NCBI GenBank assembly: GCA_032718475.1
Contig: JAUCBJ010009058.1
Location: 62,001-126,000, forward strand
Length of the DNA: 64,000 nt
Direction of reading: 5' to 3'
Source of the DNA: Nemertoderma westbladi
Lineage: Eukaryota; Animalia; Xenacoelomorpha
The translations under genes and the position numbers were made by a program. The notes beneath the pieces are model-generated. The model was not told the origin of the DNA. It was given only the letters and a program-made list of their open reading frames with translations, and searched no databases. Of this stretch, positions 16,374-64,000 are shown one piece after another; the stretch's first letter is position 1; each line of letters begins with the position of its first letter.

Positions 16374-16393
16374 ACACACACACACACACACAC

Positions 16394-16472
<79 letters not shown>
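16374..16472. repeat. (CA)n microsatellite inside the Polinton
   Basis: About 49 CA units with one interruption. Confidence 0.97.
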
Positions 16473-16474
<2 letters not shown>

Positions 16475-23800: not shown

Positions 23801-23864
23801 AATAATAATAATAAATACGAAAAATATTACAAGTGATAAATTTTAAACCGTATCGCTGTAATAA

Positions 23865-24473: not shown

Positions 24474-24959
24474 TAACTATGGAAATGTTCGTATACGTGT
24501 AGCTGGAACGTGGCGGAATTTCACGTATCATAGCGTTGGACTGGTAGGCTGCTTGGTTGGTTGGATTGATTGGTTTGGCGACAGCCGTCGAGGAGTAGCC
24601 GTGCGTGGCTAGCGGTGGTGAGTTGGCAATCGATATATAATATAATAGCGTAGTGGGGGCTAGCCATGCATCGTGAAGTTAGGTTACGCGAAGATGAATA
24701 TGCGATGGTTGGTTGATGCAACAACACGAATCAATACTCACGGTTGGTAACAGCTATCGAGTAAGGTAGGCATCATGAGGTTAGGCTACGCGTAGGCGAT
24801 AGGCAACGATTGGTTGAAGGCATCGACACGAATCAATATTGATGGTGACAGATGGTCATTAAACATCGCGATTTAGCACGTTTTTAATAGCCCTCCGAGA
24901 TGCAGCCCGTAGCCCAGGCTAGGGAGGAGTACGCGGGGGGGCCCTCTTCTTCTACTACT
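24474..24959 (-). repeat. Right terminal inverted repeat of the Polinton (486 bp)
   Basis: Reverse complement of 6739-7224; ends CTTCTTCTACTACT. Confidence 0.96.
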
Positions 24960-33900: not shown

Positions 33901-36900
33901 ATAGAGACCCAGATCCAAGCTATCGATGATACCGTTAACAACTTACTTGCGTTTCTACAGAGACCCAGATCCAAGATATCGATGATACAGTTAACAACTT
34001 ACTTGTGTTTCTACAGAGACCCAGATCCAAGCTATCGATGATACAGTTAACAACTTACTTTTTTGTTTCTACAGAGACCCAGATCCAAGCTATCGATGAT
34101 ACAGTTAACAACTTACTTGTTTGTTTCTACAGAGACCCAGATCCAAGATATCGATGATACAGTTAACAACTTACTTGTGTTTCTACAGAGACCCAGATCC
34201 AAGCTATCGATGATACAGTTAACAACTTACTTGTGTTTCTACAGAGACCCAGATCCAAGCTATCGATGATACAGTTAACAACTTACTTGTGTTTCTACAG
34301 AGACCCAGATCCAAGCTATCGATGATACAGTTAACAACTTACTTTTTTGTTTCTACAGAGACCCAGATCCAAGCTATCGATGATACAGTTAACAACTTAC
34401 TTGAATTTCTACAGAGGCCCAGACCCAAGCTATCGATGGTACAGTTAACAACTTACTTGTGTTTCTACAGAGACCCAGACCCAAGCTATCGATGATACAG
34501 TTAACAACTTACTTGTGTTTCTACAGAGACCCAGATCCAAGCTATCGATGATACAGTTAACAACTTACTTGAATTTCTACAGAGGCCCAGACCCAAGCTA
34601 TCGATGGTACAGTTAACAACTTACTTGTGTTTCTACAGAGACCCAGACCCAAGCTATCGATGATACAGTTTACAACTTACTTGTGTTTCTACAGAGACCC
34701 AGACCCAAGCTATATCGATGATACAGTTAACAACTTACTTGTGTTTCTACAGAGGCCCAGACCCAAGCTATCGATGGTACAGTTAACAACTTACTTGTGT
34801 TTCTACAGAGACCCAGATCCAAGATATTGATGATACAGTTAACAACTTACTTGTGTTTCTACAGAGACCCAGATCCAAGCTATCGATGATACAGTTAACA
34901 ACTTACTTGAATTTCTACAGAGGCCCAGACCCAAGCTATCGATGGTACAGTTAACAACTTACTTGTGTTTCTACAGAGACCCAAATCCAAGCTATCGATG
35001 ATACAGTTAACAACTTACTTGTGTTTCTACAGAGACCCAAATCCAAGCTATCGATGATACAGTTAACAACTTACTTGTGTTTCTACAGAGACCCAGATCC
35101 AAGATATCGATGATACAGTTAACAACTTACTTGTGTTTCTACAGAGACCCAAATCCAAGCTATCGATGATACAGTTAACAACTTACTTGTGTTTCTACAG
35201 AGACCCAGATCAAAGCTATCGATGATACAGTTAACAACTTACTTGTGTTTCTACAGAGACCCAGATCCAAGCTTTCGATGATACAGTTAACAACTTACTT
35301 GTGTTTCTAAAGAGTCCCAGACCCAAGCTATCGATGATACAGTTAACAACTTACTTGTGTTTCTACAGAGGCCCAGATCCAAGCTATCGATGATACCGTT
35401 AATAACTTACTTGTGTTTCTACAGAGACCCAGATCCAAGCTATCGATGATACAGTTTACAACTTACTTGTGTTTCTACAGAGACCCAGACCCAAGCTATA
35501 TCGATGATACAGTTAACAACTTACTTGTGTTTCTACAGAGGCCCAGATCCAAGCTATCGATGATACAGTTAACAACTTACTTGTGTTTCTACAGAGACCC
35601 AGATCCAAGCTATCGATGATACAGTTAACAACTTACTTGTGTTTCTACAGAGACCCAGATCCAAGCTATCGATGATACAGTTAACAACTTACTTGTGTTT
35701 CTACAGAGGCCCAGATCCAAGCTATCGATGATACCGTTAATAACTTACTTGTGTTTCTACAGAGACCCAGATCCAAGCTATCGATGATACAGTTTACAAC
35801 TTACTTGTGTTTCTACAGAGACCCAGACCCAAGCTATATCGATGATACAGTTAACAACTTACTTGTGTTTCTACAGAGGCCCAGATCCAAGCTATCGATG
35901 ATACAGTTAACAACTTACTTGTGTTTCTACAGAGACCCAGATCCAAGCTATCGATGATACAGTTAACAACTTACTTGTGTTTCTACAGAGACCCAGATCC
36001 AAGCTATCGATGATACAGTTAACAACTTACTTGTGTTTCTACAGAGACCCAGATCCAAGCTATCGATGATACAGTTAACAACTTACTTGTGTTTCTACAG
36101 AGACCCAGATCCAAGCTATCGATGATACAGTTAACAACTTACTTGTGTTTCTACAGAGACCCAGATCCAAGCTATCGATGATACAGTTAACAACTTACTT
36201 GTGTTTCTACAGAGGCCCAGATCCAAGCTATCGATGATACAGTTAACAACTTACTTGTGTTTCTACAGAGACCCAGATCCAAGCTATCGATGATACAGTT
36301 AACAACTTACTTGTGTTTCTACAGAGACCCAGATCCAAGCTATCGATGACACAGTTAACAACTTACTTGTGTTTCTACAGAGACCCAGATCCAAGCTATC
36401 GATGATACAGTTAACAACTTACTTGTGTTTCTACAGAGACCCAGATCCAAGCTATCGATGATACAGTTAACAACTTACTTGTGTTTCTACAGAGGCCCAG
36501 ATCCAAGCTATCGATGATACAGTTAACAACTTACTTGTGTTTCTACAGAGACCCAGATCCAAGCTATCGATGATACAGTTAACAACTTACTTGTGTTTCT
36601 ACAGAGGCCCAGATCCAAGCTATCGATGATACAGTTAACAACTTACTTGTGTTTCTACAGAGACCCAGATCCAAGCTATCGATGATACAGTTAACAACTT
36701 ACTTGTGTTTCTACAGAGGCCCAGATCCAAGCTATCGATGATACAGTTAACAACTTACTTGTGTTTCTACAGAGGCCCAGATCCAAGCTATCGATGGTAC
36801 AGTTAACAACTTACTTGTGTTTCTACAGAGACCCAGATCCAAGCTATCGATGGTACAGTTAACAACTTACTTGTGTTTCTACAGAGACCCAGATCCAAGC

Positions 36901-39900
36901 TATCGATGATACAGTTAACAACTTACTTGTGTTTCTACAGAGACCCAGATCCAAGCTATCGATGATACAGTTAACAACTTACTTGTGTTTCTACAGAGGC
37001 CCAGATCCAAGCTATTGATGATACAGTTAACATCTTACTTGTGTTTCTACAGAGACCCAGATCCAAGCTATCGATGATACAGTTAACAACTTACTTGTGT
37101 TTCTACAGAGACCCAGATCCAAGCTATCGATGATACAGTTAACAACTTACTTGTTTGTTTCTACAGAGACCCAGATCCAAGATATCGATGATACAGTTAA
37201 CAACTTACTTGTGTTTCTACAGAGACCCAGATCCAAGCTATCGATGATACAGTTAACAACTTACTTGTGTTTCTACAGAGACCCAGATCCAAGCTATCGA
37301 TGATACAGTTAACAACTTACTTGTGTTTCTACAGAGACCCAGATCCAAGCTATCGATGATACAGTTAACAACTTACTTTTTTGTTTCTACAGAGACCCAG
37401 ATCCAAGCTATCGATGATACAGTTAACAACTTACTTGTGTTTCTACAGAGACCCAGATCCAAGCTATCGATGATACAGTTAACAACTTACTTGTGTTTCT
37501 ACAGAGACCCAGATCCAAGCTATCGATGATACAGTTAACAACTTACTTGTGTTTCTACAGAGACCCAGATCCAAGCTATCGATGATACAGTTAACAACTT
37601 ACTTTTTTGTTTCTACAGAGACCCAGATCCAAGCTATCGATGATACAGTTAACAACTTACTTGTGTTTCTACAGAGACCCAGATCCAAGCTATCGATGAT
37701 ACAGTTAACAACTTACTTGTGTTTCTACAGAGACCCAGATCCAAGCTATCGATGATACAGTTAACAACTTACTTGTGTTTCTACAGAGACCCAGATCCAA
37801 GCTATCGATGATACAGTTAACAACTTACTTGTTTGTTTCTACAGAGACCCAGATCCAAGATATCGATGATACAGTTAACAACTTACTTTTGTTTCTACAG
37901 AGACCCAGATCCAAGCTATCGATGATACAGTTAACAACTTACTTGTGTTTCTACAGAGACCCAGATCCAAGCTATCGATGATACAGTTAACAACTTACTT
38001 GTGTTTCTACAGAGACCCAGATCAAAGCTATCGATGATACAGTTAACAACTTACTTGTGTTTCTACAGAGACCCAGATCCAAGCTTTCGATGATACAGTT
38101 AACAACTTACTTGTGTTTCTACAGAGACCCAGATCCAAGCTATCGATGATACAGTTAACAACTTACTTGTGTTTCTACAGAGGCCCAGATCCAAGCTATC
38201 GATGGTACAGTTAACAACTTACTTGTGTTTCTACAGAGACCCAAATCCAAGCTATCGATGATACCGTTAACAACTTACTTGTGTTTCTACAGAGACCCAG
38301 ATCCAAGCTATCGATGATACAGTTAACAACTTACTTGAATTTCTACAGAGGCCCAGACCCAAGCTATCGATGGTACAGTTAACAACTTACTTGTGTTTCT
38401 ACAGAGACCCAAATCCAAGCTATCGATGATACAGTTAACAACTTACTTGTGTTTCTACAGAGACCCAGATCCAAGCTTTCGATGATACAGTTAACAACTT
38501 ACTTGTGTTTCTACAGAGACCCAGATCCAAGCTTTCGATGATACAGTTAACAACTTACTTGTGTTTCTACAGAGACCCAGATCCAAGATATCGATGGTAC
38601 AGTTAACAACTTACTTGTGTTTCTACAGAGACCCAAATCCAAGCTATCGATGATACAGTTAACAACTTACTTGTGTTTCTACAGAGACCCAGATCAAAGC
38701 TATCGATGATACAGTTAACAACTTACTTGTGTTTCTACAGAGACCCAGATCCAAGCTTTCGATGATACAGTTAACAACTTACTTGTGTTTCTACAGAGAC
38801 CCAGATCCAAGCTATCGATGATACAGTTAACAACTTACTTGAATTTCTACAGAGGCCCAGACCCAAGCTATCGATGGTACAGTTAACAACTTACTTGTGT
38901 TTCTACAGAGACCCAAATCCAAGCTATCGATGATACAGTTAACAACTTACTTGTGTTTCTACAGAGACCCAAATCCAAGCTATCGATGATACAGTTAACA
39001 ACTTACTTGTGTTTCTACAGAGACCCAGATCCAAGATATCGATGAAACAGTTAACAACTTACTTGTGTTTCTACAGAGACCCAGATCCAAGCTATCGATG
39101 ATACAGTTAACAACTTACTTGTGTTTCTACAGAGATCCAGATCCAAGCTTTCGATGATACAGTTAACAACTTACTTGTGTTTCTACAGAGACCCAGATCC
39201 AAGCTATCGATGGTACAGTTAACAACTTACTTGTGTTTCTACAGAGACCCAAATCCAAGCTATCGATGATACAGTTAACAACTTACTTGTGTTTCTACAG
39301 AGACCCAGATCAAAGCTATCGATGATACAGTTAACAACTTACTTGTGTTTCTACAGAGACCCAGATCCAAGCTTTCGATGATACAGTTAACAACTTACTT
39401 GTGTTTCTACAGAGACCCAGATCCAAGCTATCGATGATACAGTTAACAACTTACTTGAATTTCTACAGAGGCCCAGACCCAAGCTATCGATGGTACAGTT
39501 AACAACTTACTTGTGTTTCTACAGAGACCCAAATCCAAGCTATCGATGATACAGTTAACAACTTACTTGTGTTTCTACAGAGACCCAGATCAAAGCTATC
39601 GATGATACAGTTAACAACTTACTTGTGTTTCTACAGAGACCCAGATCCAAGCTTTCGATGATACAGTTAACAACTTACTTGTGTTTCTACAGAGACCCAG
39701 ATCCAAGCTATCGATGATACAGTTAACAACTTACTTGAATTTCTACAGAGGCCCAGACCCAAGCTATCGATGGTACAGTTAACAACTTACTTGTGTTTCT
39801 ACAGAGGCCCAGATCCAAGCTATCGATGATACAGTTAACAACTTACTTGTGTTTCTACAGAGACCCAGATCCAAGCTATCGATGATACAGTTAACAACTT

Positions 39901-42900
39901 ACTTGAATTTCTACAGAGGCCCAGACCCAAGCTATCGATGGTACAGTTAACAACTTAATTGTGTTTCTACAGAGACCCAAATCCAAGCTATCGATGATAC
40001 AGTTAACAACTTACTTGTGTTTCTACAGAGACCCAAATCCAAGCTATCGATGATACAGTTAACAACTTACTTGTGTTTCTACAGAGACCCAGATCCAAGA
40101 TATCGATGATACAGTTAACAACTTACTTGTGTTTCTACAGAGACCCAGATCCAAGCTATCGATGGTACAGTTAACAACTTACTTGTGTTTCTACAGAGAC
40201 CCAGATCCAAGCTTTCGATGATACAGTTAACAACTTACTTGTGTTTCTACAGAGACCCAGATCCAAGCTATCGATGGTACAGTTAACAACTTACTTGTGT
40301 TTCTACAGAGACCCAAATCCAAGCTATCGATGATACAGTTAACAACTTACTTGTGTTTCTACAGAGACCCAGATCAAAGCTATCGATGATACAGTTAACA
40401 ACTTACTTGTGTTTCTACAGAGACCCAGATCCAAGCTTTCGATGATACAGTTAACAACTTACTTGTGTTTCTACAGAGACCCAGATCCAAGCTATCGATG
40501 ATACAGTTAACAACTTACTTGAATTTCTACAGAGGCCCAGACCCAAGCTATCGATGGTACAGTTAACAACTTACTTGTGTTTCTACAGAGACCCAAATCC
40601 AAGCTATCGATGATACAGTTAACAACTTACTTGTGTTTCTACAGAGACCCAGATCAAAGCTATCGATGATACAGTTAACAACTTACTTGTGTTTCTACAG
40701 AGACCCAGATCCAAGCTTTCGATGATACAGTTAACAACTTACTTGTGTTTCTACAGAGACCCAGATCCAAGCTATCGATGATACAGTTAACAACTTACTT
40801 GAATTTCTACAGAGGCCCAGACCCAAGCTATCGATGGTACAGTTAACAACTTACTTGTGTTTCTACAGAGGCCCAGATCCAAGCTATCGATGATACAGTT
40901 AACAACTTACTTGTGTTTCTACAGAGACCCAGATCCAAGCTATCGATGATACAGTTAACAACTTACTTGTGTTTCTACAGAGACCCAGATCCAAGCTATC
41001 GATGATACAGTACAGAGGCCAAGATCCAAGCTATCGATGATACAGTTAACAACTTACTTGTGTTTCTATAGAGACCCAGATCCAAGCTATCGATGATACC
41101 GTTAACAACTTACTTGCGTTTCTACAGAGACCCAGATCCAAGATATCGATGATACAGTTAACAACTTACTTGTGTTTCTACAGAGACCCAGATCCAAGCT
41201 ATCGATGATACAGTTAACAACTTACTTTTTTGTTTCTACAGAGACCCAGATCCAAGCTATCGATGATACAGTTAACAACTTACTTGTTTGTTTCTACAGA
41301 GACCCAGATCCAAGATATCGATGATACAGTTAACAACTTACTTGTGTTTCTACAGAGACCCAGATCCAAGCTATCGATGATACAGTTAACAACTTACTTG
41401 TGTTTCTACAGAGACCCAGATCCAAGCTATCGATGATACAGTTAACAACTTACTTGTGTTTCTACAGAGACCCAGATCCAAGCTATCGATGATACAGTTA
41501 ACAACTTACTTTTTTGTTTCTACAGAGACCCAGATCCAAGCTATCGATGATACAGTTAACAACTTACTTGAATTTCTACAGAGGCCCAGACCCAAGCTAT
41601 CGATGGTACAGTTAACAACTTACTTGTGTTTCTACAGAGACCCAGACCCAAGCTATCGATGATACAGTTAACAACTTACTTGTGTTTCTACAGAGACCCA
41701 GATCCAAGCTATCGATGATACAGTTAACAACTTACTTGAATTTCTACAGAGGCCCAGACCCAAGCTATCGATGGTACAGTTAACAACTTACTTGTGTTTC
41801 TACAGAGACCCAGACCCAAGCTATCGATGATACAGTTAACAACTTACTTGTGTTTCTACAGAGACCCAGATCCAAGCTATCGATGATACAGTTAACAACT
41901 TACTTGAATTTCTACAGAGGCCCAGACCCAAGCTATCGATGGTACAGTTAACAACTTACTTGTGTTTCTACAGAGACCCAGATCCAAGATATTGATGATA
42001 CAGTTAACAACTTACTTGTGTTTCTACAGAGACCCAGATCCAAGCTATCGATGATACAGTTAACAACTTACTTGAATTTCTACAGAGGCCCAGACCCAAG
42101 CTATCGATGGTACAGTTAACAACTTACTTGTGTTTCTACAGAGACCCAAATCCAAGCTATCGATGATACAGTTAACAACTTACTTGTGTTTCTACAGAGA
42201 CCCAAATCCAAGCTATCGATGATACAGTTAACAACTTACTTGTGTTTCTACAGAGACCCAGATCCAAGATATCGATGATACAGTTAACAACTTACTTGTG
42301 TTTCTACAGAGACCCAAATCCAAGCTATCGATGATACAGTTAACAACTTACTTGTGTTTCTACAGAGACCCAGATCAAAGCTATCGATGATACAGTTAAC
42401 AACTTACTTGTGTTTCTACAGAGACCCAGATCCAAGCTTTCGATGATACAGTTAACAACTTACTTGTGTTTCTACAGAGACCCAGATCCAAGCTATCGAT
42501 GATACAGTTAACAACTTACTTGAATTTCTACAGAGGCCCAGACCCAAGCTATCGATGGTACAGTTAACAACTTACTTGTGTTTCTACAGAGACCCAGATC
42601 CAAGCTATCGATGATACAGTTAACAACTTACTTGAATTTCTACAGAGGCCCAGATCCAAGCTTTCGATGATACAGTTAACAACTTACTTGTGTTTCTACA
42701 GAGACCCAGATCCAAGCTATCGATGGTACAGTTAACAACTTACTTGTGTTTCTACAGAGACCCAAATCCAAGCTATCGATGATACAGTTAACAACTTACT
42801 TGTGTTTCTACAGAGACCCAGATCAAAGCTATCGATGATACAGTTAACAACTTACTTGTGTTTCTACAGAGACCCAGATCCAAGCTTTCGATGATACAGT

Positions 42901-44753
42901 TAACAACTTACTTGTGTTTCTACAGAGACCCAGATCCAAGCTATCGATGATACAGTTAACAACTTACTTGAATTTCTACAGAGGCCCAGACCCAAGCTAT
43001 CGATGGTACAGTTAACAACTTACTTGAATTTCTACAGAGGCCCAGACCCAAGCTATCGATGGTACAGTTAACAACTTACTTGTGTTTCTACAGAGACCCA
43101 GACCCAAGCTATCGATGATACAGTTAACAACTTACTTGTGTTTCTACAGAGACCCAGATCCAAGCTATCGATGATACAGTTAACAACTTACTTGTGTTTC
43201 TACAGAGACCCAGATCCNNNNNNNNNNNNNNNNNNNNNNNNNNNNNNNNNNNNNNNNNNNNNNNNNNNNNNNNNNNNNNNNNNNNNNNNNNNNNNNNNNN
43301 NNNNNNNNNNNNNNNNNACCCATATCCAAGCTATCGATGATACCGTTAACAACTTACTTGTGTTTCTACAGAGACCCAGATCCAAGCTATCGATGATACA
43401 GTTAACAACTTACTTGTGTTTCTACAGAGACCCATATCCAAGCTATCGATGATACCGTTAACAACTTACTTGTGTTTCTACAGAGACCCAGATCGAAGCT
43501 ATCGATGATACAGTTAACAACTTACTTGTGTTTCTACAGAGACCCAGACCCAAGCTATCGATGATACAGTTAACATCTTACTTGTGTTTCTACAGAGACC
43601 CAGATCCAAGCTATCGATGATACAGTTAACAACTTACTTGTGTTTCTACAGAGACCCAGACCCAAGCTATCGATGATACAGTACAGAGACCCAGATCCAA
43701 GCTATCGATGATACAGTTAACAACTTACTTGTGTTTCTACAGAGGCCCAGATCCAAGCTATCGATAATACAGTACAGAGACCCAGATCCAAGCTATCGAT
43801 GGTACAGTTAACAACTTACTTGTGTTTCTACAGAGGCCCAGACCCAAGATATCGATAATACAGTACAGAGACCCAGATCCAAGCTATCGATGATACAGTT
43901 AACAACTTACTTGTGTTTCTACAGAGACCCAGATCCAAACTATCGATAATACAGTTAACAACTTACTTGTGTTTCTACAGAGACCCAGATCCAAGCTATC
44001 GATGATACAGTTAACAACTTACTTGTGTTTCTACAGAGGCCCAGATCCAAGCTATCGATGATACAGTTAACAACTTACTTGTGTTTCTACAGAGACCCAG
44101 ATCCAAGCTATCGATGATACAGTTAACTACTTACTTGTGTTTCTACAGAGACCCAGATCCAAGCTATCGATGATACAGTTAACAACTTACTTGTGTTTGT
44201 TTCTACATAGACCCAGATCAAAGCTATCGATGATACAGTTAACAACTTACTTGTGTTTCTACAGAGACCCAGATCCAAGCTATCGATGATACAGTTAACA
44301 ACTTACTTGTGTTTCTACAGAGGCCCAGATCCAAGCTATCGATGATACAGTTAACAACTTACTTGTGTTTGTTTCTACATAGACCCAGATCAAAGCTATC
44401 GATGATACAGTCAACAACTTACTTGTGTTTCTACAGAGACCCAGATCCAAGCTATCGATGATACAGTTAACAACTTACTTGTGTTTCTACAGAGACCCAG
44501 ATCCAAGCTATCGATGATACAGTTAACAACTTACTTGTGTTTCTACAGAGACCCAGATCCAAGCTATCGATGATACAGTTAACAACTTACTTGTGTTTCT
44601 ACAGAGACCCAGATCCAAGCTATTGATGATACAGTTAACAACTTACTTGTGTTTCTACAGAGACCCAAATCCAAGCTATCGATGATACAGTTAACAACTT
44701 ACTTGTGTTTCTACAGAGACCCAGATCCAAGCTATCGATGATACAGTTAACAA
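24960..44753. repeat. 56-bp satellite, right block, with higher-order duplications and a scaffold gap
   Basis: Same unit as 4080-6738, about 350 copies; its last unit merges into the ABCG exon. Confidence 0.97.
43218..43317. other. Assembly gap (100 N)
   Basis: Run of exactly 100 N, the usual placeholder for a gap of unknown size. Confidence 0.99.
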
Positions 44754-44808
44754 TCGCTTCTTTCTCAGATACTTTGAGAGAATCTGATAGGCGTAAATGA
44801 GCCGTATA
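44703..44808 (-). CDS. Host ABCG transporter exon (YTAHLRLSDSLKVSEKEAIVNCIIDSLDLGLCRNT); its 3' half is the first satellite unit
   Basis: Acceptor ttcctttcttag| and donor |gtaagt; 106 nt, phase 0/1. Joins ...DTLM to IIGD...LSGGE as expected for an ABCG NBD. Confidence 0.92.
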
Positions 44809-45520
44809 CTAAGAAAGGAAACAATAAGATATAATTGAATAAACTCATCTACATTGACGTATATGTTGTGGGTACTGCTTTTACAGCTAACTACCTCAAA
44901 TTTAGTATTAAATTAATTGATTGATTAAATCTAATTGATTAAATTATTAAATTAAATAAGTAAATTAAGTTTACAAACTCAACTAAAATTATTTTGTTAC
45001 ATTATGTCAACTTAACAGCGTTCTGGTGAATTACTCGTAACGCTGCAAAGTCTACTTTGCAGCGTTGCGGTCTATAGGCGTTGCGGCCTATACGGCTTAC
45101 CGTATTCCAGAATATATTATTTCCATTTATGTTAATGAGTGCTGCTTTATTATCCAGTTTGCAGTGACGGGACTAGCTACTGTATGTAAATAATTGTTTA
45201 ACGTGTACATCCATTATGGCGAGAAGACACTTTTGAGAAAATGACCAAAGAAAATGGCGACTGTGTTCAGTGAAACTAGACAGTGACTAAGTTTGCTTCA
45301 GTCGACTGTTTATAGTCAAGATGGATTAATGATTTATCACATCCAAGCAGGAGATAACTTACAATAAACTTTAATTAGATTTAAATGAATAATTAATACT
45401 GTGTACCTGTTAAAATTTCACTTATATTTGATATAGTACATGATTAAAATGTATAAATGAATATCCATAAAATCCTTTCTTCACATACCGAACTCTGATA
45501 AGTTGACATAATGTAACAAA

Positions 45521-46416
45521 AAGAGTTATCAAAAAAGAAAGACAGGCATCTGGCTGTTATCTTTGTTGACTTCTACAAGGCCTTTGATTCAGTCTCTCGC
45601 TCAAGTATGTTCAGCATACTTTCATTATATGGGATTCCTGATGAAATTATTGTAGCAATCAGATCAGTATACGATGGTTCGATAACATTTGTGTCTACTG
45701 TTGACGGTGACACATAACCATTTGAAGTGTTATGGGGCGTCCTCCAGGGAGACACACTTGCACCATTCTTGTTCATAATTGTGGTTGACTATGTTCTTCG
45801 CATGTCCTTAGATCATCATCATGATGATGGGGTGATGATAACTCCACCTACTGGCTCCAGAAGTCGAGGAAATCCTGCCAAGTACCTAACTGATCTAGAC
45901 TTTGCTGATGACCTAGGAGTACTCTCAGAATCACTAGAGGGAGCCCAACGGCTCCTCAGCTCATTAGAACATGCTGCTTCTAGTGTTGGTCTTTTTATTA
46001 ACTCTAGAAAGACCAAAATTTTGACAGTTAACTTTGAAAGTCCCCAGCAAGTCTCTGACCGGATGAGCATAAGCTCAAATGATGGTATGCTTGAGCATGT
46101 GGACGACTTTGCTTTGACTTTACTTTGCTTGAGCATGTGGACGACGACGCCTCTGCTTTGCAGGACATTGCTTTCGCCGTGAGGACCAGCCAGGGCATAA
46201 TCTTGTACTTTGGCAGCCTCATGGAGTGAATAAGCATGGTGGACAGCCCATGACTTTCTTGAGACGCATCTTAAAGGACACTGGCCTTGAAGATGCGGAT
46301 GATCTAGCAAATGTCATGGGTGATTGGGAGTTGTGGCGGCGCAATTTTGTCGAGAAGCCGGCACAGCATTCTTAAAATTCAGCTGCAATGCAGCATGCCG
46401 ATCCTAGTAGTAGTAG
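45521..46416 (+). mobile_element. 5'-truncated, internally deleted RTE-like non-LTR retrotransposon copy
   Basis: GVLQGDTLAPFLF and FADD RT motifs; closely similar to 49918-51110; deletion junction near 46110-46155; ends in a (TAG)n tail. Confidence 0.9.
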
Positions 46417-46545
46417 TGTACCGCAACGGTAATGTGCCAGTGACCAAGGCTACCTAAAATACATTAGTTATCATAGGGAGGCGTTCATAAAGTATGTCAC
46501 GCAAATTTTCGCGATTGTTGACCCCCCATTAAAGCATTTAAAGGG

Positions 46546-47191: not shown

Positions 47192-47855
47192 CTAACGTTT
47201 AGGTAATGTTTTCTTGTTGTGTGAAACCATTTTCATGAACTCCCATCCTGTCATCTCTGCTCGTTTTTGAGACTTGGCTGGATTGGTGCTAGTCTTTGCT
47301 TCACTATTTTCTCGAATTCTGGTACCGGTACTTATTCCTCGAATATTTTTATCCTAAATAAAATAATAAAAAAAAGAACCAAATAATTTTAGTTACAATA
47401 TGATCTCACCTACCAATTATGTAGCTATATATAATTCTAAATAATTGTGACTAATGTAATCTTATACTAAAAAATAAGTCTAGTAAACCAATCAGAATAT
47501 AATTATAATGACATGGAGGTCCCATAATAAATTAGAAACGATAATAAATAATTCCCAAATGAATATTTAATCTGACCTTCACTCCGCCACTCGGTCTACC
47601 TCTAACGTTCGACCCTCTCCTTTTCGACTTCCCCTTTCCTTTCTTCCCCTTTCCTCTTCGACTCTTTGACTTACTTCCTTTACCTCGGCGACTCCTTGAC
47701 CTGCTCTTCTTTCCCTTATTACTTCCCTTTCTCGTCGTTCGTCTCCTTTTCTCCATTTCTTTCTTGCTTGTTTCCCCCCGATCGTCAACTAAACCCGAAC
47801 CCGGCACTTCAACCTGCTCCGCTCCATAATTGTCACTGTCTGCGCTCGCAGCCAT
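47192..47855 (-). CDS. Nested two-exon gene for a small K/R/S/G-rich basic protein (protamine-like); exons 47855-47577 and 47353-47192, 146 aa
   Basis: ATG at 47855, donor AAG|GTCAGA (phase 0), acceptor TTTAG|GAT, exon 2 open to TAG; TATATAAA about 80 nt upstream. Confidence 0.6.
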
Positions 47856-48074
47856 TAATATGGAAGTAAATGGTAGGCCTATCTAGATCAGATCCTTTTA
47901 CAATGACACACTAATTACTGTAAGCTGTTAAATTTATATAAAATTACATTTGCGTTTTGTGGAAACTAAAAAAATTAAATTCTAGAATTCTGTTGCTAAA
48001 GCTAAAGCAGACAATATTTTACCAATTTCTTTATGATTCGATATTCCTACATGAACGGTATAGTGTTTATTAAT

Positions 48075-48595
48075 AAATTTAGCGGGAATGATTTTACAAT
48101 CACTCCCGCTAAATTACAATCATTCCCGCTAAATTACAATCATTCCCGCTAAATTACAATCATTCCCGCTAAATTACAATCATTCCCGCTAAATTACAAT
48201 CATTCCCGCTAAATTACAATCATTCCCGCTAAATTACAATCATTCCCGCTAAATTACAATCATGCCCGCTAAATTACAATCATGCCCGCTAAATTACAAT
48301 CATTCCCGCTAAATTACAATCATTCCCGCTTAATTACAATCATTCCCGCTAAATTACAGTCATTCCCGCTAAATTACAATCATTCCCGCTAAATTACAAT
48401 CATTCCCGCTAAATTACAATCATTCCCGCTAAATTACAATCATGCCCGCTAAATTACAATCATTCCCGCTAAATTACAATCATTCCCGCTAAATTACAAT
48501 CATTCCCGCTAAATTACAATCATTCCCGCTAAATTACAATCATTCCCGCTAAATTACAATCATGCCCGCTAAATTACAATCATGCCCGCTAAATT
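48075..48595. repeat. 20-bp minisatellite (CATTCCCGCTAAATTACAAT)n, about 25 copies, preceded by one inverted unit
   Basis: Direct periodicity; AATTTAGCGGGAATGATT at about 48076-48093 is the reverse complement of the unit. Confidence 0.95.
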
Positions 48596-49050: not shown

Positions 49051-49594
49051 ACCCCCCCCCCCCCCCCCCCCCCAAGTCAAGTCAAGTGTAAATCTATATT
49101 AATAACAGATATTACAGAGTCGGAGTCTATGGAAACCGCTATTTAATAGCTCTTTTAGTTTTCAAGTTATAACAATTTCCATTTAGGGAATCCAATTGAA
49201 ATTACTATGTATATTGAAAGGTCGATTATTTCCAAATGATTTTTATAGAGTTGTATCGTGATCAGCGACCTTTAAAACCAGTATAGCTTCAGAATTACCA
49301 AACCAAAGGCAAAAATAATAAAAACAATTTATATAGCGCCAAATTTACATAGGAATACTCTATGGCGCTGAAACAACAGTATCGTACACATTACGTAGTC
49401 AAACAACTTAGAATAAAATAAACTATAACTAAAATTTTGTAAAACAAGTTTAACAATTCTGTTAAAATATTCGGTTCAGTTAAAACAATTCCGAATTCAG
49501 TTAGAACAAGCTCTGGTCTGTACGAACAGTAGGAATAAGATATGATATAATAAATCACGAGTACCAGTTAAATAACTGGGAGCAAAACAAGGAA

Positions 49595-52500
49595 TAGGAG
49601 TAGCGCCCACCCCTACCTTCGGGTAGCAGTTAGGAGTAGTGCCCACTCCTACCTTCGGGTATCAGATAGGAGTAGCGCCCACCCCTACAAGAAATGAAAA
49701 CAAATAAGTTGGTGCCAGTTCCCAAGAAGGGCAACCTAACACTCTATGGTTCTTTTCGGGGAATCTCATTGATCTCGATTGCTGCAAAGCTATACAATAG
49801 GATTCTAATAAATCGCATCAGGGATCCCATTGAGAGACTGCTCCGTGGAAATCAGAATGGGATCCGTAAAGGTCGTGGGACCATGGAGCCCATTTTGGCA
49901 CTTAGAAGGATAATTGAAGAGTTATCAAAAAAGAAAGACAGGCATCTGGCTGTTATCTTTGTTGACTTCTTCAAGGCCTTTCATTCAGTCTCTCGCTCAC
50001 GTATGTTCAGCATACTTTCATTATATGGGATTCCTGATGAAATTATTGCAGCAATCAGATCAGTATACGATGGTTCGACAACATTTGTGTCTACTGTTGA
50101 CGGTGACACAGAACCATTTGAAGTGTTATGGGGCGTCCTCCAAGGAGACACACTTGCACCATTCTTTTTCATTATTGTGGTTGACTATGTTCTACGCATG
50201 TCCTTAGATCATTATAATGATGATGGGGTGATGATAACTCCACCTACTGGCTCCAGAAGTCGAGGAAATCCTGCCAAGTACCTAACTGATCTAGACTTTG
50301 CTGATGACTTAGGAGTACTCTCAGAATCATTAGAGGGAGCCCAACGGCTCCTCAGCTCATTAGAACATGCTGCGTCTAGTGTTGGTCTTTTTATTAACTC
50401 CAGAAAGACCAAAATTCTGACAGTTAACTTTGAAAGTCCTCAGCAAGTCTCTGATCGGATGAGCATAAGCTCAAAGGATGGTATGCTTGAGCATGTGGAC
50501 GACTTCTGTTACCTGGGATCATGGATCCGGAAGTCAGGTGAGGACCTTCGAATACGTAAGGGAAAGGCATCGGCAGCCTTGAATAGGCTTTCCAGGATTT
50601 GGAAGTCACCGAGAATTAATCGGAAACTTAAGGTCCGATTATTTAGAGCAGCAGTAGTTCCAGTACTCCTCTACGGGAGTCCATGCTGGGCTATAACTGC
50701 CGAGGACACCAAATCTCTGGATGGCACATTCACAAGAATGCTACGCCGGGTTCATTGTGTCAAGTAGAATGCACACATCTCCAACCAGACACTATATAAC
50801 ATTGGAGGTGTCTCATTGGTTCCCCCAAGCTTGACACTAGAACAAAATCACCTCCGCTTTGCAGGACATTGCTTTCGTCGTGAGGACCAGCTAGTGCATA
50901 ATCTTGTACTTTGGCAGCCTCATGGAGTGAATAAGCATGGTGGACAGCCCATGACTTACTTGAGAAGCATCTTAAAGGACACTGGCCTTGAAGATTCGGA
51001 TGATCTAGCAAATGTCATGGGTGATAGGGAGTTGTGGCGGTGCAATTTTGTTGACAAGCCGGCACAGCATTCTTAAAAATGCAGCTGCAATGCAGCATGC
51101 CGATCCTAGTAGCGTCCACCCCTACCTTCGGGTAGCAGATAGGAGTAGCGCCCACCCCTACCTTCGGGTAGCAGATAGGAGTAGCGCCTACCCCTACCCT
51201 CGGGTATCAGATAGGAGTAGCACCCACCCCTACCTCCGGGTAGCAGATAGGAGTAGCGCCCACCCCTACCTTCGGGTAACAGATAGGAGTAGTGCCCACT
51301 CCTACCTTTGGGTAGCAGATAGGAGTAGCACCCACCCCTACCTTCGGGTGGCAGATAGGAGTAGCGCCCACCCCTACCTTCGGGTAGCAGGTAGGAGTAG
51401 CGCCCACCCCTACCTTCGGGTAGCAGATAGGAGTAGCGCCCACACCTACCTTCGGGTAGCAGGTAGGAGTAGCGCCCACCCCTACCTTTGGGTAGCAGAT
51501 AGGAGTAGCGCCCACACCTACCTTCGGGTAGCAGGTAGGAGTAGCGCCCACCCCTACCTTCGGGTAGCAGATAGGAGTAGCGCCCACCCCTACCTTCGGG
51601 TAGCAGTTAAGAGTAGCGCCCACCCCTACCTTCGGGTAGCAGATAGGAGTAGCGCCCACCCCTATCATCGGGTAGCAGATAGAAGTAGCGCCAACACCTA
51701 CCTTCGGGTAGCAGATAGGAGTAGCGCCAACCCCTACCTTCGGGTAGCAGATAGGAGTAGCACCCACCCCTACCTTCGGGTAGCAGATAGGAGTAGCGCC
51801 AACCCCTACCTTCGGGTAGCAGATAGGAGTAGCGCCAACCCCTACCTTCGGGTAGCAATTAAGAGTAGCGCCCACCCCTACCTTCAGGTAGCAGATAGGA
51901 GTAGCGCCCACCCCTACCATCGGGTAGCAGATAGAAGTAGCGCCCACACCTACCTTCGGGTAGCGGATAGGAGTAGCGCCAACCCCTACCTTCGGGTAGC
52001 AGATAGGAGTAGCGCCAACCCCTACCTTCGGGTAGCAGATAGGAGTAGCGCCAATCCCTACCTTCGGGTAGCAGATAGGAGTAGCACCCCCACCTACCTT
52101 CTGGTAGCAGATAGGAGTAGCGCCCACCCCTACCCTCGGGTAGCAGATAGGAGTAGCGCCCACACCTACCTTCGGGTAGCAGATAGGAGTAGCGCCCACC
52201 CCTACCTTCGGGTAGCAGATAGGAGTAGCGCCCACACCTACCATCGGGTAGCAGATAGGAGTAGCGCCAACCCCTACCTTCGGGTAGCAGAAACGAGTAC
52301 CACCCACCCCTACCTTCGGGTAGCAGATAGGAGTAGCGCCAACCCCTACCTTCGGGTAGCAGATAGGAGTAGCGCCAACCCCTACCTTCGGGTAGCAGTT
52401 AAGAGTAGCGCCCACCCCTACCTTCGGGTAGCAGATAGGAGTAGCGCCCACACCTACCCTCGGGTAGCAGATAGAAGTAGCGCCCACACCTACCTTCGGG

Positions 52501-53718
52501 TAGCAGATAGGAGTAGCGCCAACCCCTACCTTCGGGTAGCAGATAGGAGTAGCGCCAACCCGTACCTTCGGGTAGCAGATAGGAGTAGCGCCAATCCCTA
52601 CCTTCGGGTAGCAGATAGGAGTAGCACCCACCCGCCACCCCTACCTTCGGGTAGCAGATATGAGTAGCGCCAACCCCTACCTTCGGGTAGCAGATAGGAG
52701 TAGCGCCCAACCCTACCCTCGGGTAGCAGATAGGAGTAGCGCCCACACCTACCTTCGGGTAGCAGATAGGAGTAGCGCCCACCCCTACCTTCGGGTAGCA
52801 GATAGGAGTAGCACCCACTCCCATCCCTATCCTCGGGTAGCAGATAGGAGTAGCGCCCACACCTACCTTCGGGTAGCAGATAGGAGTAGCGCCCAACCCT
52901 ACCCTCAGGTAGCAGATAGGAGTAGCGCCTACACCTACCTTCGGGTAGCAGATAGGAGTAGCGCCCACCCCTACCCTCGGGTAGCAGATAGGAGTAGCGC
53001 CCACACCTACCTTCGGATAGCAGATAGGAGTAGCGCCCACACCTATCTTCGGGTAGCAGATAGGAGTAGCGCCCAACCCTACCCTCGGGTAGCAGATAGG
53101 AGTAGCGCCCAACCCTACCCTAGGGTAGCAGATAGGAGTAGCGCCCACACCTACCTTCGGGTAGCAGATAGGAGTAGCGCCCACCCCTACCCTCGGGTAG
53201 CAGATAGGAGTAGCGCCCACACCTACCTTCGGATAGCAGATAGGAGTAGCGCCCACACCTACCCTCGGGTAGCAGATAGGAGTAGCGCCTACACCTACCT
53301 TCGGGTAGCAGATAGGAGTAGCGCCCACACCTACCCTCGGGTAGCAGATAGGAGTAGCGCCCAACCCTACCCTCGGGTAGCAGATAGGAGTAGCGCCCAA
53401 CCCTACCCTAGGGTAGCAGATAGGAGTAGCGCCCACACCTACCTTCGGGTAGCAGATAGGAGTAGCGCCGACCCGTACACTCGGGTAGCAGATAGGAGTA
53501 GCGCCCACACCTACCCTCGGGTAGCAGATAGGAGTAGCGCCTACACCTACCTTCGGGTAGCAGATAGGAGTAGCGCCCACACCGACCCTCGGGTAGCAGA
53601 TAGGAGTAGCGCCCACCACTACCCTCGGGTAGCAGATATGAGTAGCGCCCACACCTACCTTCGGGTAGCAGATAGGAGTAGCGCCGACCCCTACCCTCGG
53701 ATAGCAGATCGGAGTAGG
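49595..53718. repeat. 36-bp GC-rich minisatellite (CCCACCCCTACCTTCGGGTAGCAGATAGGAGTAGCG)n, split by the RTE insertion (49595-49688 and 51108-53718)
   Basis: About 75 copies; the ORFs at 51012-53757 are its translations. Confidence 0.96.
49690..51112 (+). mobile_element. 5'-truncated RTE-like non-LTR retrotransposon (RT domain and 3' end)
   Basis: ORF 49694..50767 has PVPKKG, RGISL, QGDTLAP, FADD, YLGS and LLYGS motifs; the frameshifted C terminus LRFAGHC follows; inserted in the 36-bp satellite. Confidence 0.93.
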
Positions 53719-54604: not shown

Positions 54605-54777
54605 CATTAGGGTATCAAATAGAGTTAAATTGGCGAAGAATATATCCTCTTGAAGGACGTAGCATATTTTTCGTCTCATTCTTTTGGTTAAAGGAACCCC
54701 ATTAATGTGAAAGTAACCCGAATCTATTTCGGTGTTTCGACCTCCAAGTATGTTGAGTAGAGTCGTCTTACCGGCAC
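54605..54777 (-). CDS. Host ABCG transporter exon (GAGKTTLLNILGGR...KICYVLQEDIFFANLTLFDTLM): Walker A second half and Q-loop
   Basis: Acceptor ttctag| and donor |gtgagc; 173 nt, phase 1/0. Confidence 0.94.
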
Positions 54778-54984: not shown

Positions 54985-56465
54985 TAGGTCATTGGTGGTG
55001 CAATATAGATAGGCTTCGGCTAATTATGTCCAGCTGATAACGGTGTCGGAATTAGCGCGGTCGATACCGAAACGCAACCATGTTTATTACAAATTAATTA
55101 TTTATTACATGGGAAAAAAAGTAGAACTTTTCTTTCATTATCTCGAGAAATTTTATTTACCGAGTGTCAGCGAGGTTAATAAAGGGTCGAGAGAATATTG
55201 AAAAAAAAAATGTTCTACGTTTTTTTTCCCATGTAATACGTAACTTAATTCTTAAATTGGTACTTTTTTGTTGCTAAATACTTTAATAAAACATATAGCG
55301 ATATACTGCAACAGTACAGTTGTGTTACAAAATAAATCGAACTGCAGTATTTTACTATATTGCTTCGATAGTTACTGCTATTCAAATTATTGTACTCCTC
55401 AACTCTCGATGTTGCCTTACTCAATGTTAAAATAATTTAGTGTTCTCGAATATTTATTACGTAACTAGAGAGCCGCTTAACAACATAAACCAATATTGGA
55501 TATTGAGTTCCGTTTTGGTGTTCGCCGCGCAGACACTAAAGTTGCAATAACTTTTGAGTAAGTGAATGGATTTTGCTCAAATTACTTTCAAACCTTTTCT
55601 ACGGCGATGCTCTTTCACCACATGAAATAAATTCCACCAAAAATATTTTACTTTACTTTTTCGCCAGGAAAAAAGGTAAAATCAATGCATTCATAATTTT
55701 TTCCCTAGGGAAAAAAAGTGAAACTTTTTCTCCCGATTTTGGGGTATATTCGAGCGAAAAAGTGACATTTGCACCAGTCATATTGCAGTGATTCTTCCAC
55801 CTTATAGTAATTTGTTGGTAGCAATGGAAAGCTGGCCGTGCAAAGATTCCAAATATGTGAAAATATTTGAATTTGGTTTGGAAATAGCTGAGTTATGGGC
55901 ATTCGAATGTTGCATGTAATTGCTTCCGGTGCAGGCCATTTATTCTATTTAATAAATACACAATTTTCTGGAACATTTTGTTTATCTCATAGTAGCTTGG
56001 CAACAATGCAATGCCTATAATAATAATATTGGTTTTAAAGTAAACACTACAGTCTTACACCCCTTAAACTACAAAAAAAAAATATAGAATCAGGACATTA
56101 AGCCCAAAATACTTCTCAGCCCCTAGGGCCTTCAAAGGACACAAACAAAACAAACAACAAACACAAACAAAATATATAATAACATGCTCCACATACAGGT
56201 ATGTATCGCAAACCTAACCCTAAAACCTACCCGCCATACACTAAATGATACCGGTAATAAACCGCACAAAAACTAAGCCTATATTGTATAAGAAAATATA
56301 TGACATTTTTGTCGCCGTGAAAGAGGAGGACTAAGACAAAAATAATTAATTTGTGAAAAATATGGTTGCGTTTCGGCGTCTAGGACCAGTACGCGCTAAT
56401 CCTAGACGCCTCGTCAGCTGGAAAGGGATTTAGCCAAGCCTATCTATACTGCACCAATGACCTAA
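54985..56465. mobile_element. Degenerate TIR element (about 100-bp diverged inverted ends) containing an internal palindromic MITE at about 55105-55236
   Basis: TTAGGTCATTGGTG...CCGAAACGCAACCAT is mirrored by ATGGTTGCGTTTCGG...CACCAATGACCTAA. Confidence 0.6.
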
Positions 56466-56549
56466 ATACTTTGTTGTACTTTCCTTTGAGTGATTAGTTG
56501 GCCTAAATATGATATCCCACTCCATAGTGAAATCTTCATCCGATCTGGT

Positions 56550-56632
56550 AGCTCAGTACACACACCCGGCTGATGATAACCGTAAGTTTGAAACCTAGGT
56601 ACCGGGTTCGAGCCCCAACAGGGTCGGTTGAT
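56550..56632 (+). mobile_element. Possible tRNA-derived SINE head remnant
   Basis: A-box-like TAGCTCAGT and B-box-like GGTTCGAGCCC; no complete cloverleaf. Confidence 0.4.
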
Positions 56633-56886
56633 ATTTTTCGCTATTGAGAGCATTATCATATTGTCCTATCTACATTATATAAATGACCTAAATTAATCGC
56701 ACCATCAACTCAGTTACCACTACGCCCATACAGACTTCAGACCTGAGAACATTGGAACCCTCCATATAGACCTACGGTAAGTAAACATGTTACCAATGGA
56801 AAAACTGGTAGATTGCTAGAGCAAACACACAGTACAAAAATTATAAGATTTGACAACATGCAGTGATGTCGGAGTTCTGCTCTATA

Positions 56887-57608
56887 ATTCATATGTGATA
56901 ATTGAATGTACCGACATACTGACTAACAGGGGGTTGTTATGTATATATTAACTTTAAAGTAAACACTAGAGTCTTACACCCCTTAAACTACAAAAAAAAA
57001 TATAGAATCAGGACATTAAGCCCAAAATACTTCTCAGCCCCTAGGGCCTTCAAAGGACACAAACAAAACAAACAACAAATACAAACAAAATATATAATAA
57101 CATGCTCCACATACAGGTATGTATCGCAAACCTAACCCTAAAACCTACCCGCCATACACTAAATGATACCGGTATTAAACTGCACAAAAGCTAAGCCTAT
57201 ATTGTATAAGAAAATATATGACATTTTTGTGTTTTTTCACAAATTAATTATTTTTGTCCTAGTCCTACCTCTTTCACAGCGACAAAAATGTCATAGATTT
57301 TCTTATAGAATATAGGCTTAGCTTTTGTGCAGTTAAATACCGGTATCATTTAGTGTATGGCGGTTAGGTTTTAGGGTTAGGGTGCGATACATACCTGTAT
57401 GTGGAGAATGTTATTATATATTTTGTTTGTGTTTGTTGTTTGTTTTGTTTGTGTCCTTTGAAGGTATTTTGGGCTTAATGTCCTGATTCTATATTTTTTT
57501 TTTGTAGTTTAAGGGGTGTAAGACTCTAGTGTTTACTTTAAAGTTAATATATACATAACAACCCCCTGTTAGTCAGTATGTCGGTACATTCAATTATCAC
57601 ATATGAAT
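56887..57608. repeat. Foldback (palindromic) duplication with arms of about 330-345 bp; a third copy lies at about 56033-56360
   Basis: 56887-57230 is the near-perfect reverse complement of about 57281-57608. Confidence 0.9.
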
Positions 57609-58104: not shown

Positions 58105-59378
58105 GTGTGGTTCTGTGATAAACTGGCAGTTATTATTGAAATCTGTGGTTCTGTGATAAACTGGCAGTCATTATTGTAAATCTGTGGTTCTGTGATAAAC
58201 TGGCAGTTATTATTGCAAATCTGTGGTTCTGTGATAAACTGGCAGTCATTATTGTAAATCTGTGGTTTTGTGATAAACGGCAGTTATTATTGTAAATCTG
58301 TGGTTCTGTGATAAACTGGCAGTCATTATTGTAAATCTGTGTTTCTGTGATAAACGGCAGTTATTATTGTAAATCTGTGGTGCTGTGATAAACTGGCAGT
58401 TATTATTGTAAATCTGTGGTTCTGTGATAAACTGGCAGTTATTATTGCAAATCTGCGGTTCTATATCTGTGGAAAATTGATAAACTGGCAGTCATTATTG
58501 TAAATCTGTGGTTCTGTGATAAACTGCCAGTCATTATTGTAAATCTGTGGTTCTGTGATAAACTGGCAGTCATTATTGTAAATATGTGGTTCTGTGATAA
58601 ACTGGCAGTTATTATTGTAAATCTGTGGTTCTGTGATAAACTGGCAGTCATTATTGTAAATCTGTGGTTCTGTGATAAACTGGCAGTCATTATTGTAAAT
58701 CTGTGGTTCTGTGATAAACTGGCAGTTATTATTGTAAATCTGCGGTTTTATATCTGTGGTAAAATTGATAAACTGCCAGTCATTATTGTAAATCTGTGGT
58801 TCTGTGATAAACTGCCAGTCCTTATTGTAAATCTGTGGTCCTGTGATAAACTGGCAGTCATTATTGTAAATATATGGTTCTGTGATAAACTGGCAGTTAT
58901 TATTGTAAATCTGTGGTTCTGTGATAAACTGGCAGTTATTATTGTAAATCTGTGGTTCTATGATAAACTGGCAGTTATTATTGTAAAACTGTGGTTCTGT
59001 GATAAACTGGCAGTTATTATTGTAAATCTGTGTTTCTGTGATAAACTGGCAGTCATTATTGTAAATCTGTAGTTCTGTGATAAACTGGCAGTTAATATTG
59101 TAAATCTGTGTTTATGTGATAAACTGGCAGTTATTATTGTAAATCTGTGCTTCTGTGATAAACTGGCAGTTATTATTGTAAATCTGTGCTTCTGTGATAA
59201 ACTGGCAGTTATTATTGTAAATCTGTGCTTCTGTGATAAACTGGCAGTTATTATTGTAAATCTGTGGTTCTGTGATAAACTGGCAGTTATTATTGTAAAT
59301 CTGTGGTTCTGTGATAAACTGGCAGTTATTATTGTAAATCTGTGGTTCTATGATGAACTGACAGTTATTATTGTAAAT
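58105..59378. repeat. 39-bp minisatellite (AATCTGTGGTTCTGTGATAAACTGGCAGTTATTATTGTA)n
   Basis: About 32 copies. Confidence 0.96.
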
Positions 59379-61224: not shown

Positions 61225-61296
61225 TACGGTATATTTATATGTATATATATAATATACTTCATAATATAAGCCGAGACCTAACCAATACCGGTATAC

Positions 61297-64000
61297 CCAA
61301 TAACACAAATACTTACCACTTGGTCCCATAACCCAAATACTTACCAAACTGGGTCCCATAACACAAATACTTAACAATTGGTCCCATAACCCAAATACTT
61401 ACCACTTGGTCCCATGACCCAAATACTTACCAAATGGTCCCATGGCCCAAATACTTACCAATTGGTCCCATAACACAAATACTTAACAATTGGTCCCATA
61501 ACCCAAATACTTTACCACTGGGTCCCTTAACCCAAATACTTTACCACTTGGTCCCAAATACTTTACCACTTGGTCCCATAACCAAATTACTTACCACTTG
61601 GTCCAATAACCCAAATACTTTACCACTGGGTCCCTTAACCCAAATACTTTATCACTTGGTCCCAAATACTTTACCACTTGGTCCCATAACCCAATCACTT
61701 ACCACTTGGTCCCATAACCCAACTACTTTACCACTGGGTCCCTTAACCCAAATACTTTACCACTTGGTCCTATAACCCACGTACTTACACTCGGTCCCTT
61801 AACCCAAATACTTTACCACTTGGTCCCATAACCCAAATACTTTACCACTTGGTCCCATAACCCAATTACTTACCACTGGATCCCTTAATCCAAATACTTA
61901 CCACTTGGTCCCAAAACCCAAGTACTTACACTTGGTCCCTTAACCCAAATACTTTACCACTTGGTCCCATAACCCAAATACTTACCACTCTGTCCCATAA
62001 CCCAATTACCTACCACTGGGTCCCTGAACCCAAATACTTACCACTTGGTTCCATAACCCAAGTACTTACACTTGGTCCCTTAACCCAAATACTTTACCAC
62101 ATGGTCCCATAACCCAAATACTCACCATTCTGTCTCATAACCCAATTACTTACCACTGGGTCCCTGAACCCAAATACTTACCACTTGGTCACATAACCCA
62201 ATTACTTACCACTGGGTCCCTTAACCCAAATACTTACCACTTCGTCCCATAACCCAAGTACTTACCACTTGGTCCCATAACCCAAGTACTTACCACTTGG
62301 TCCCTTAACCCAAATACTTTACCACTTGGTCCCATAACCCAAATACTTTACTACTTGGTCCCATATCCAAATTTCTTACCACTGGGTCCGATAATCCCAA
62401 ATACTTTACCACTTGGTCCCAAATACTTACCACTCTGTCCCATAACCCAATTACTTACCACTGGGTCCCTTAACCCAAATACTTACCACTTGGTCCCATA
62501 ACCCAAGTACTTACCACTTGGTCCCTTAACCCAAATACTTTACCACTGGGTCCCTGAACCCAAATACTTACCACTTGGTCCCATAACCCAAGTACTTACC
62601 ACTTGGTCCCTTAACCCAAATACTTTACCACTTGGTCCCATAACCCAAGTACTTACCACTTGGTCCCTTAACCCAAATACTTTACCACTGAGTCCCTGAA
62701 CCCAAATACTTACCACTTGGTCCCATAACCCAAGTACTTACCACTTGGTCCCTTAACCCAAATACTTTACAACTTGGTCCCATAACCCAATTACCTACCA
62801 CTGGGTCCCATAACCCAAATACTTTACCACTTGGTGCCATAACACAAATACTTACCACTTGGACCCATAATCCAAACACATACCACTTGGTCCCATAACC
62901 CAAATACTTTACCACTTGGTCCCATAACCCAATTACTTACCACTGGGTTGCTTAACCCAAATTCTTACCACTTGGTCCCATAAACCTAAGCACTTACACT
63001 TGGTCCCTTAACCCAAATACTTTACCACTTGGTCCCATAACCCAATTACTTATCACTGTGTCCCATAACCAAAACACGTACCACTTGGTCCCATAACACA
63101 AATACTTACTTACCACTTGGTCCCATAATCCAAACACTTACCACTTGGTCCCATAACCCAAATACTTTACCACTTGGGTCCCATAACCCAATTACTTACC
63201 ACTGGGTTGATTAACCCAAATACTTACCACTTGGTCCCATAACCTAAGTACTTACACTTGGTCCCTTAACCCAAATACTTTACCACTTGGTCCCATAACC
63301 CAAATACTTTACCACTTGGTCCCATGACCCAAATACTTTACCACTTGGTCCCATAACCCAAGTACTTACCACTTGGTCCCTTAACCCAAATACTTTACAA
63401 CTTGGTCCCATAACCCAATTACCTACCACTGGGCCCCATAACCCAAATACTTTACCACTTGGTGCCATAACACAAATACTTACCACTTGGACCCATAATC
63501 CAAACACATACCACTTGGTCCCATAACCCAAATACTTTACCACTTGGTCCCATAACCCAATTACTTACCACTGGGTGGCTTAACCCAAATTCTTACCACT
63601 TGGTCCCATAAACCTAAGCACTTACACTTGGTCCCTTAACCCAAATACTTTACCACTTGGTCCCATAACCCAATTACTTATCACTGTGTCCCATAACCAA
63701 AACACGTACCACTTGGTCCCATAACACAAATACTTACTTACCACTTGGTCCCATAATCCAAACACTTACCACTTGGTCCCATAACCCAAATACTTTACCA
63801 CTTGGGTCCCATAACCCAATTACTTACCACTGGGTTGATTAACCCAAATACTTACCACTTGGTCCCATAACCTAAGTACTTACACTTGGTCCCTTAACCC
63901 AAATACTTTACCACTTGGTCCCATAACCCAAATACTTTACCACTTGGTCCCATGACCCAAATACTTTACCACTTGGTCCCATAACCCAAGTACTTACCAC
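61297..64000. repeat. 28/29-bp satellite (ACCCAAATACTTACCACTTGGTCCCATA)n derived from an ABCG exon end plus donor
   Basis: The reverse complement reads GTT ATG GGA CCA AGT G|GTAAGT (VMGPSG|donor). A higher-order repeat of about 598 bp is present; the array runs off the right edge. Confidence 0.93.

Follow-up and report, generated by a model that had tools for sequence, protein, structure and literature searches.

A 28-bp minisatellite that very likely reiterates the end of an ABCG Walker A exon together with its splice donor

What is the 28-bp tandem array that runs to the end of the window (the whole stretch of 64,000 nucleotides that was analysed), and how is it related to the ABCG transporter gene encoded on the same strand? 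TRF placed the array at 61300–64000, with 95.7 copies and 82% matches, reaching the window edge. By aligning the minus strand to one unit taken from the window, we decomposed the array into 97 pieces of 54 sequence types, namely a 3-nt stub, 95 full units (61317–64000, minus strand) and a terminal partial unit, which carries the last donor copy and leads into unique intron sequence (61291–61316, minus strand). Because the array passes the window end at 64000, the copy number of at least 95 is a lower bound. The consensus unit on the minus strand is made up of 12 nt starting GTAAGTAT, which would represent the start of an intron, and of GTT ATG GGA CCA AGT G, as the sequence-only reading had it, which would represent the end of an exon encoding V-M-G-P-S-G in phase 1. 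The exact 16-nt coding part ends 29 of the 97 pieces; at the 96 junctions, GT is kept 91 times, GTAAGT is found 47 times and GTAAAG, with a one-base insertion, 33 times. Between 62742 and 63997 (minus strand), a higher-order block of 22 units and 628 bp occurs twice in tandem with only two mismatches, and units with 21–22-nt deletions are also present, which suggests that the array has been turning over recently; distinct variants are found at its distal boundary. The variety of the units argues against a pure assembly artefact, and the array length given here is that of the single haplotype sampled.

We considered that the unit might have been derived from the exon encoding the first half of the Walker A motif of the ABCG gene. 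First, the reading frame agrees with this origin. The exon at 54777 opens TTCTAG|GT GCC GGT AAG, and its join to the coding part of the unit reads VMGPSGAGKTTLL, the start of a 217-aa read-through; this is the in-phase Walker A that had been proposed from the sequence, and moving the join by one base in either direction brings in stops. With a search pattern that was picked post hoc, after the sequence was seen, the chance of [VIM]-M-G-P-S-G|GT is about 2.8e-9 per site at the local base composition, 2.6e-6 chance matches are expected over the 460 array-unit registers on both strands of the window, and among 500,000 shuffles of the unit the strict pattern did not occur and the relaxed pattern GP[ST]G|GT occurred 14 times. 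Second, the position of the junction is conserved. Among 21 hits, a complete Walker A match is contained in 13 homologues, every one of which reads LA[IV]M-GPSG[SA]GKTT, and in six short metagenomic frames the similarity starts exactly at G-SGKTT, as expected of an exon read from genomic DNA. Two of 11 metagenome loci, L001 and L002, were inspected, the remaining nine being 34–56% identical. In L002, which is 82–89% identical to an Acropora ABCG, the upstream exon ends ATG GGG CCC AGT G|GTAAGT and the next exon starts AG|GT, giving the same phase-1 intron; L001 has the same acceptor as the window gene, the upstream exon being absent there. Third, a profile of the upstream exon scored at most 6.2 bits in the window outside the 28-bp array, whereas true homologues left out of the profile reached 53.9 and 37.9 bits; the upstream exon therefore does not appear to lie elsewhere in the window, and an MGPSG exon with other codons was not found there outside the array.

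Frame and phase, the conserved intron position, the lack of an alternative exon in the window and the like anatomy of a second, 56-bp array in the same gene make it very likely that the 28-bp unit is the end of the upstream ABCG exon together with its donor, as the sequence-only reading had claimed, the coding part from which the exon is identified amounting to 16 bases and no more. We are accordingly confident, if short of certain, in reading the array as tandem copies of a segment that joins the final 16 bases of that exon to the first 12 of its intron, with the exon itself expected beyond 64000. Some intervening sequence could separate the array from its exon, given the 18-kb element that divides the gene's 56-bp array in two.

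The remaining exons of the gene in the window, all on the minus strand, were placed by tblastn with four homologues and by inspection of the boundaries. Exon b (54605–54777; G-AGKTT...FDTLM) has a phase-1 acceptor and encodes the second half of Walker A and the Q-loop (Pfam ABC_tran, E 1.1e-5, above the cut-off). It is followed by exon c (44703–44808; YTAH...CRNT), exon d (3925–4025), which carries the signature LSGGEKKR and Walker B up to D, exon e (3665–3790; EPTTGLD...IHQPS) and exon f (3156–3285; MFDKLL...NPADFI), for which the Pfam match to ABC2_membrane_7 (E 2e-4) is below the cut-off. All five have AG and GT ends, and together with the 16 coding bases of the unit they give a stop-free ABCG nucleotide-binding domain of 217 aa, in which Walker A, the Q-loop, the LSGGE signature, Walker B and the H-loop follow one another in the order of an ABCG half-transporter. 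The C-terminal membrane domain would fall below coordinate 1, outside the window. Each of the 13 homologues of at least 250 aa that were retrieved is 56–61% identical to the product across the visible nucleotide-binding domain (one of them over 186 residues only); they include animal half-transporters of Lingula, Acropora, Stylophora and Mizuhopecten annotated as 'ABC transporter G family member 14/22/9-like'. For example, 133 of 217 residues are identical to a Lingula ABCG, with one gap. Introns in Walker A, after TL[TM] and after C[LR].T are common to the window gene and the coral-like loci. The latter differ in having an extra intron inside the region of exon c, which is a single exon in the window gene, and in having no boundary arrays; this extra intron lies after KLQK (L001:1562-2411, L002:2903-3944).

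A second array of the same gene shows the complete anatomy that the 28-bp array shows in part. In the 56-bp unit, GTAAG follows the final 51 nt of exon c, with an exact match of 85 nt to that exon. The array abuts the exon and opens at its own donor, and the first monomer is therefore the authentic junction. The 16-nt junction core occurs 369 times with at most two mismatches, 323 times in an exon-proximal part (24960–44702, minus strand, with a 100-N gap at 43218–43317) and 46 times in a distal part (4084–6738, minus strand), whose last copy has decayed; CAA|GTAAGT is found at 359 junctions. In L002, the donor CLDT-A|GT is present where the 56-bp array sits in the window gene, and TRF detected no boundary array at that locus. 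Subtracting the array and its insertion from the intron between exons c and d, now 40,677 nt long, leaves a residual intron of 58 nt (4026–4083, minus strand, GT...AG); other introns of the gene measure 134 and 379 nt. About 6 kb of the array (28460–34460) repeats at a lag of 7167 with 99.4–100% identity, either because a block was duplicated very recently or through an artefact of assembly.

The two parts of the array flank an 18.2-kb element (6739–24959), which we take, from its anatomy, to be Polinton/Maverick-like. Its terminal inverted repeats are 486 nt long (98%), a 6-bp target-site duplication is present, and its frames include an rve integrase (10227–11339) and an adenovirus-type protease (15134–15607), both above the Pfam cut-off, and a weak match to an A32-type ATPase (8928–9605), below it. 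Long minus-strand frames at 18994–22563 of the element look polymerase-like by eye, with no fitting Pfam match.

Do such arrays represent a new class of repeat, as the sequence-only reading had supposed? This part of the claim was wrong. In the lancelet, tandem repeats that span an exon-intron boundary were named 'mirages' in Adh3 and were also found in globin genes, at donors and at acceptors, with splicing undisturbed (PMC3087553). As in the mirages of Adh3, BflGb6 and BflGb9, the units of the window arrays cross the boundary and keep the splice signal in many but not all copies (PMC3087553); the 28-bp unit is composed of 16 coding nt and 12 nt from GT, judging from frame, homology and the conserved intron position, and its splice signal likewise recurs in many units but not in all. 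Units of 28 and 56 bp fall within the 10–160-bp range of lancelet mirages, and in both the copies at the boundary are the more diverged (PMC3087553). Even the occurrence of two arrays in one gene has a precedent, in that lancelet PGBD5 has unrelated repeat units at two of its 5′ splice sites, 60 bp long at one and 108 bp at the other, the same arrangement as in the window gene (PMC3902484). Minisatellites that reiterate a donor have also been described in human, in F7 intron 7 (a 37-bp VNTR), 6-16, CBS intron 13, LMNB2 and PDGF intron 4 (PMC1557585); there the authentic donor lies in the first monomer and recurs as a pseudo-site in those that follow, and it is from these repeats that our model for the window arrays is taken. 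The window arrays thus belong to the known mirages, or splice-donor minisatellites, and it is their size that stands out. They have at least 95 and about 370 copies, whereas BflGb6 has 3–6 (PMC3087553) and the human repeats 5–25, the F7 unit including four exon bases as against 16 in the 28-bp unit (PMC1557585); the arrays of PGBD5 have 2–7 copies (PMC3902484), whereas those of the window gene range from kilobases to 22 kb, one of them with the Polinton-like insertion. Normal splicing of lancelet mirages was checked by RT-PCR (PMC3087553), and allelic length variation and splice-site use were measured for the human repeats (PMC1557585); the window arrays are described here from the DNA sequence of one haplotype. 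Arrays of this kind are of value for annotation, because they mislead gene callers and inflate introns.

How might the arrays have arisen, and how might the gene tolerate them? We propose that a short duplication across the donor came first and left the frame and the first donor intact; it would have been tolerated because the exon and the first donor stay as they were. Short stretches of matching sequence may have seeded it through slippage. The sequence GTTAT is present both in the exon part of the 28-bp unit and just beyond the last donor copy, and this points weakly to seeding by microhomology; the matching bases beyond the last donor may instead be a decayed partial copy, and the junction of the 56-bp array is one base off a simple ATT overlap. 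Slippage and unequal exchange would then have expanded and mixed the copies, as the unit variants and the block duplication suggest. As a consequence of amplification across the donor, the intron would hold at least 95 spare donor copies. In experiments with human F7, identical downstream pseudo-donors were functional, yet the most upstream one was chosen (PMC1557585). By analogy, the spliceosome would take the most upstream donor here too, in which case the 28-bp array would be spliced out with the intron, and the spare donors are likely to be normally ignored. Use of a later donor would be expected to lead to a premature stop. In a model with consensus-like 28-bp units (the exon-proximal ones lie beyond the window), the inclusion of one to six extra units gave a stop in each case, as did one to three extra 56-bp units, so that any leakage would yield truncated or degraded messages. 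Some leakage to nearby pseudo-donors is possible, given the full GTAAGT at nearly half of the junctions of the 28-bp array (47 of 96) and the precedent of human 6-16 and CBS, in which the nearest pseudo-donors are used as well (PMC1557585). No purging of pseudo-donors was seen among the junctions of the two arrays. We consider it most likely that the 28-bp array is tolerated repeat DNA with no function of its own. With 95 to 370 competing sites, as against 5 to 25 in the human cases, the gene is an extreme natural test of first-donor selection.

Are donors preferred origins of such arrays? The sequence-only reading took the two arrays as the sign of a recurrent process that converts exon-intron boundaries into satellites. 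Donors might indeed be special substrates, at which a process linked to splicing or transcription, for example R-loop formation or repair at the 5′ splice site, seeds duplications and drives intron growth in this genome. Arrays are present at two of six donors (one of them inferred) and at none of the five visible acceptors, several lancelet genes of this kind have been reported (PMC3087553, PMC3902484), and two of the six long arrays span donors when 0.12 would be expected from 10,787 non-array, non-transposon bases (P for two or more = 0.006). This test was post hoc, the window having been selected for the pattern, and a compact ancestral gene raises the chance of overlap (P 0.026 at 5 kb and 0.13 at 2 kb). 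Furthermore, for four of the six long arrays the sequence shared with any exon region does not exceed 10 nt, acceptor mirages are also known, as in BflGb6 (PMC3087553), and selection removes exon-internal duplications, which biases the survivors. What stands of the recurrent process is thus an overlap that is suggestive only, its P value moving between about 0.006 and 0.13 with the ancestral length assumed. The picture can be accounted for without a special mechanism, by an array-prone genome, by ancestral introns that were short and by selection against duplications within exons, and we regard donors as special substrates as rather unlikely. Still somewhat more doubtful is the full version, in which 5′ splice sites would preferentially seed giant satellites by a splicing-linked mechanism, short introns would grow hundreds-fold (from 58 nt to 40.7 kb, the Polinton-like insertion included) and the first of about 370 identical donors would still be chosen. 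A limited search of the open-access literature found no genome-wide test of donor versus acceptor enrichment for boundary repeats, and no such comparison was found in the accessible parts of a survey of human tandem repeats at exon-intron boundaries (PMC2812944). The observations would matter more if arrays proved, genome-wide, to originate at donors more often than short ancestral introns and selection can account for, the origin of mirages having been termed unclear in the lancelet work (PMC3087553); were donor seeding true, this genome would offer a natural experiment on that origin.

It might also be argued that the pseudo-donors are functional decoys, which tune the output of the ABCG gene by copy number, either by diverting part of its transcripts into forms with stops or by binding U1 snRNP. 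The donors are mostly intact in both arrays (GT at 91 of 96 junctions and CAA|GTAAGT at 359, respectively), added units bring stops, and human 6-16 and CBS do splice from nearby pseudo-donors (PMC1557585). However, recent homogenisation alone accounts for the intact donors, the +5 G is broken by the insertion at 33 of the 96 junctions of the 28-bp array, and the orthologue L002 does without an array; moreover, F7 uses its first donor only (PMC1557585), and lancelet mirages are reported to be without aberrant mRNA (PMC3087553). We therefore judge a decoy function improbable. It is less probable again, to the point of being remote, that the 28-bp array is derived from an exon but detached from its gene, the upstream exons having been lost or displaced or the unit having come from the donor of a paralogue. 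The 5′ part of the gene does fall outside the window, and the region is full of mobile elements, but the five visible exons are canonical at AG and GT and are joined without stop or frameshift, and the array lies on the right strand, upstream of the exon that it fits. Finally, that the array is an ordinary G-rich satellite with telomere-like TTTGGG/ATGGG tracts, or a collagen-like GPSG coding repeat, its likeness to Walker A being due to chance, is hardly credible in spite of the strong strand skew (GC skew −0.42 to −0.59) and 156 G3 tracts, because none of the 500,000 shuffles reproduced the pattern, the GT sits at a conserved intron position, and a period of 28 with stops in the read-through rules out a coding repeat. 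The canonical G-quadruplex pattern with loops of 1–7 nt had no match, and with loops of up to 20 nt it had 30.

The window as a whole consists of AT-rich, animal-type DNA that is dense in tandem arrays and mobile elements. Further intronic arrays have units of 48 bp (1–3080), 20 bp (48094–48595) and 39 bp (58106–59378), and the 48-bp array begins about 75 nt past the donor of exon f, which it does not include. Towards its end, a 36-bp array (49594–53717) is broken by a LINE fragment, which carries a reverse transcriptase frame (49676–50761; Pfam RVT_1, E 3.5e-28), and a second, shorter LINE copy is located at about 45510–46420. On the minus strand, the 36-bp unit contains the donor-like AAG|GTAGGG and matches no ABCG exon. 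The 48-, 39-, 36- and 20-bp arrays were rejected as mirages of this gene, because splice-like words are present in them but no exon of the gene is matched, the sequence in common with any exon region being at most 10 nt. At 56050–57480, several hundred bases recur in direct and inverted copies, which probably represent a small inverted-repeat transposon. At 47535–47882 on the minus strand, within the intron that separates exons b and c, there is a short open frame of protamine-like low complexity with many Lys, Arg, Ser and Gly residues.
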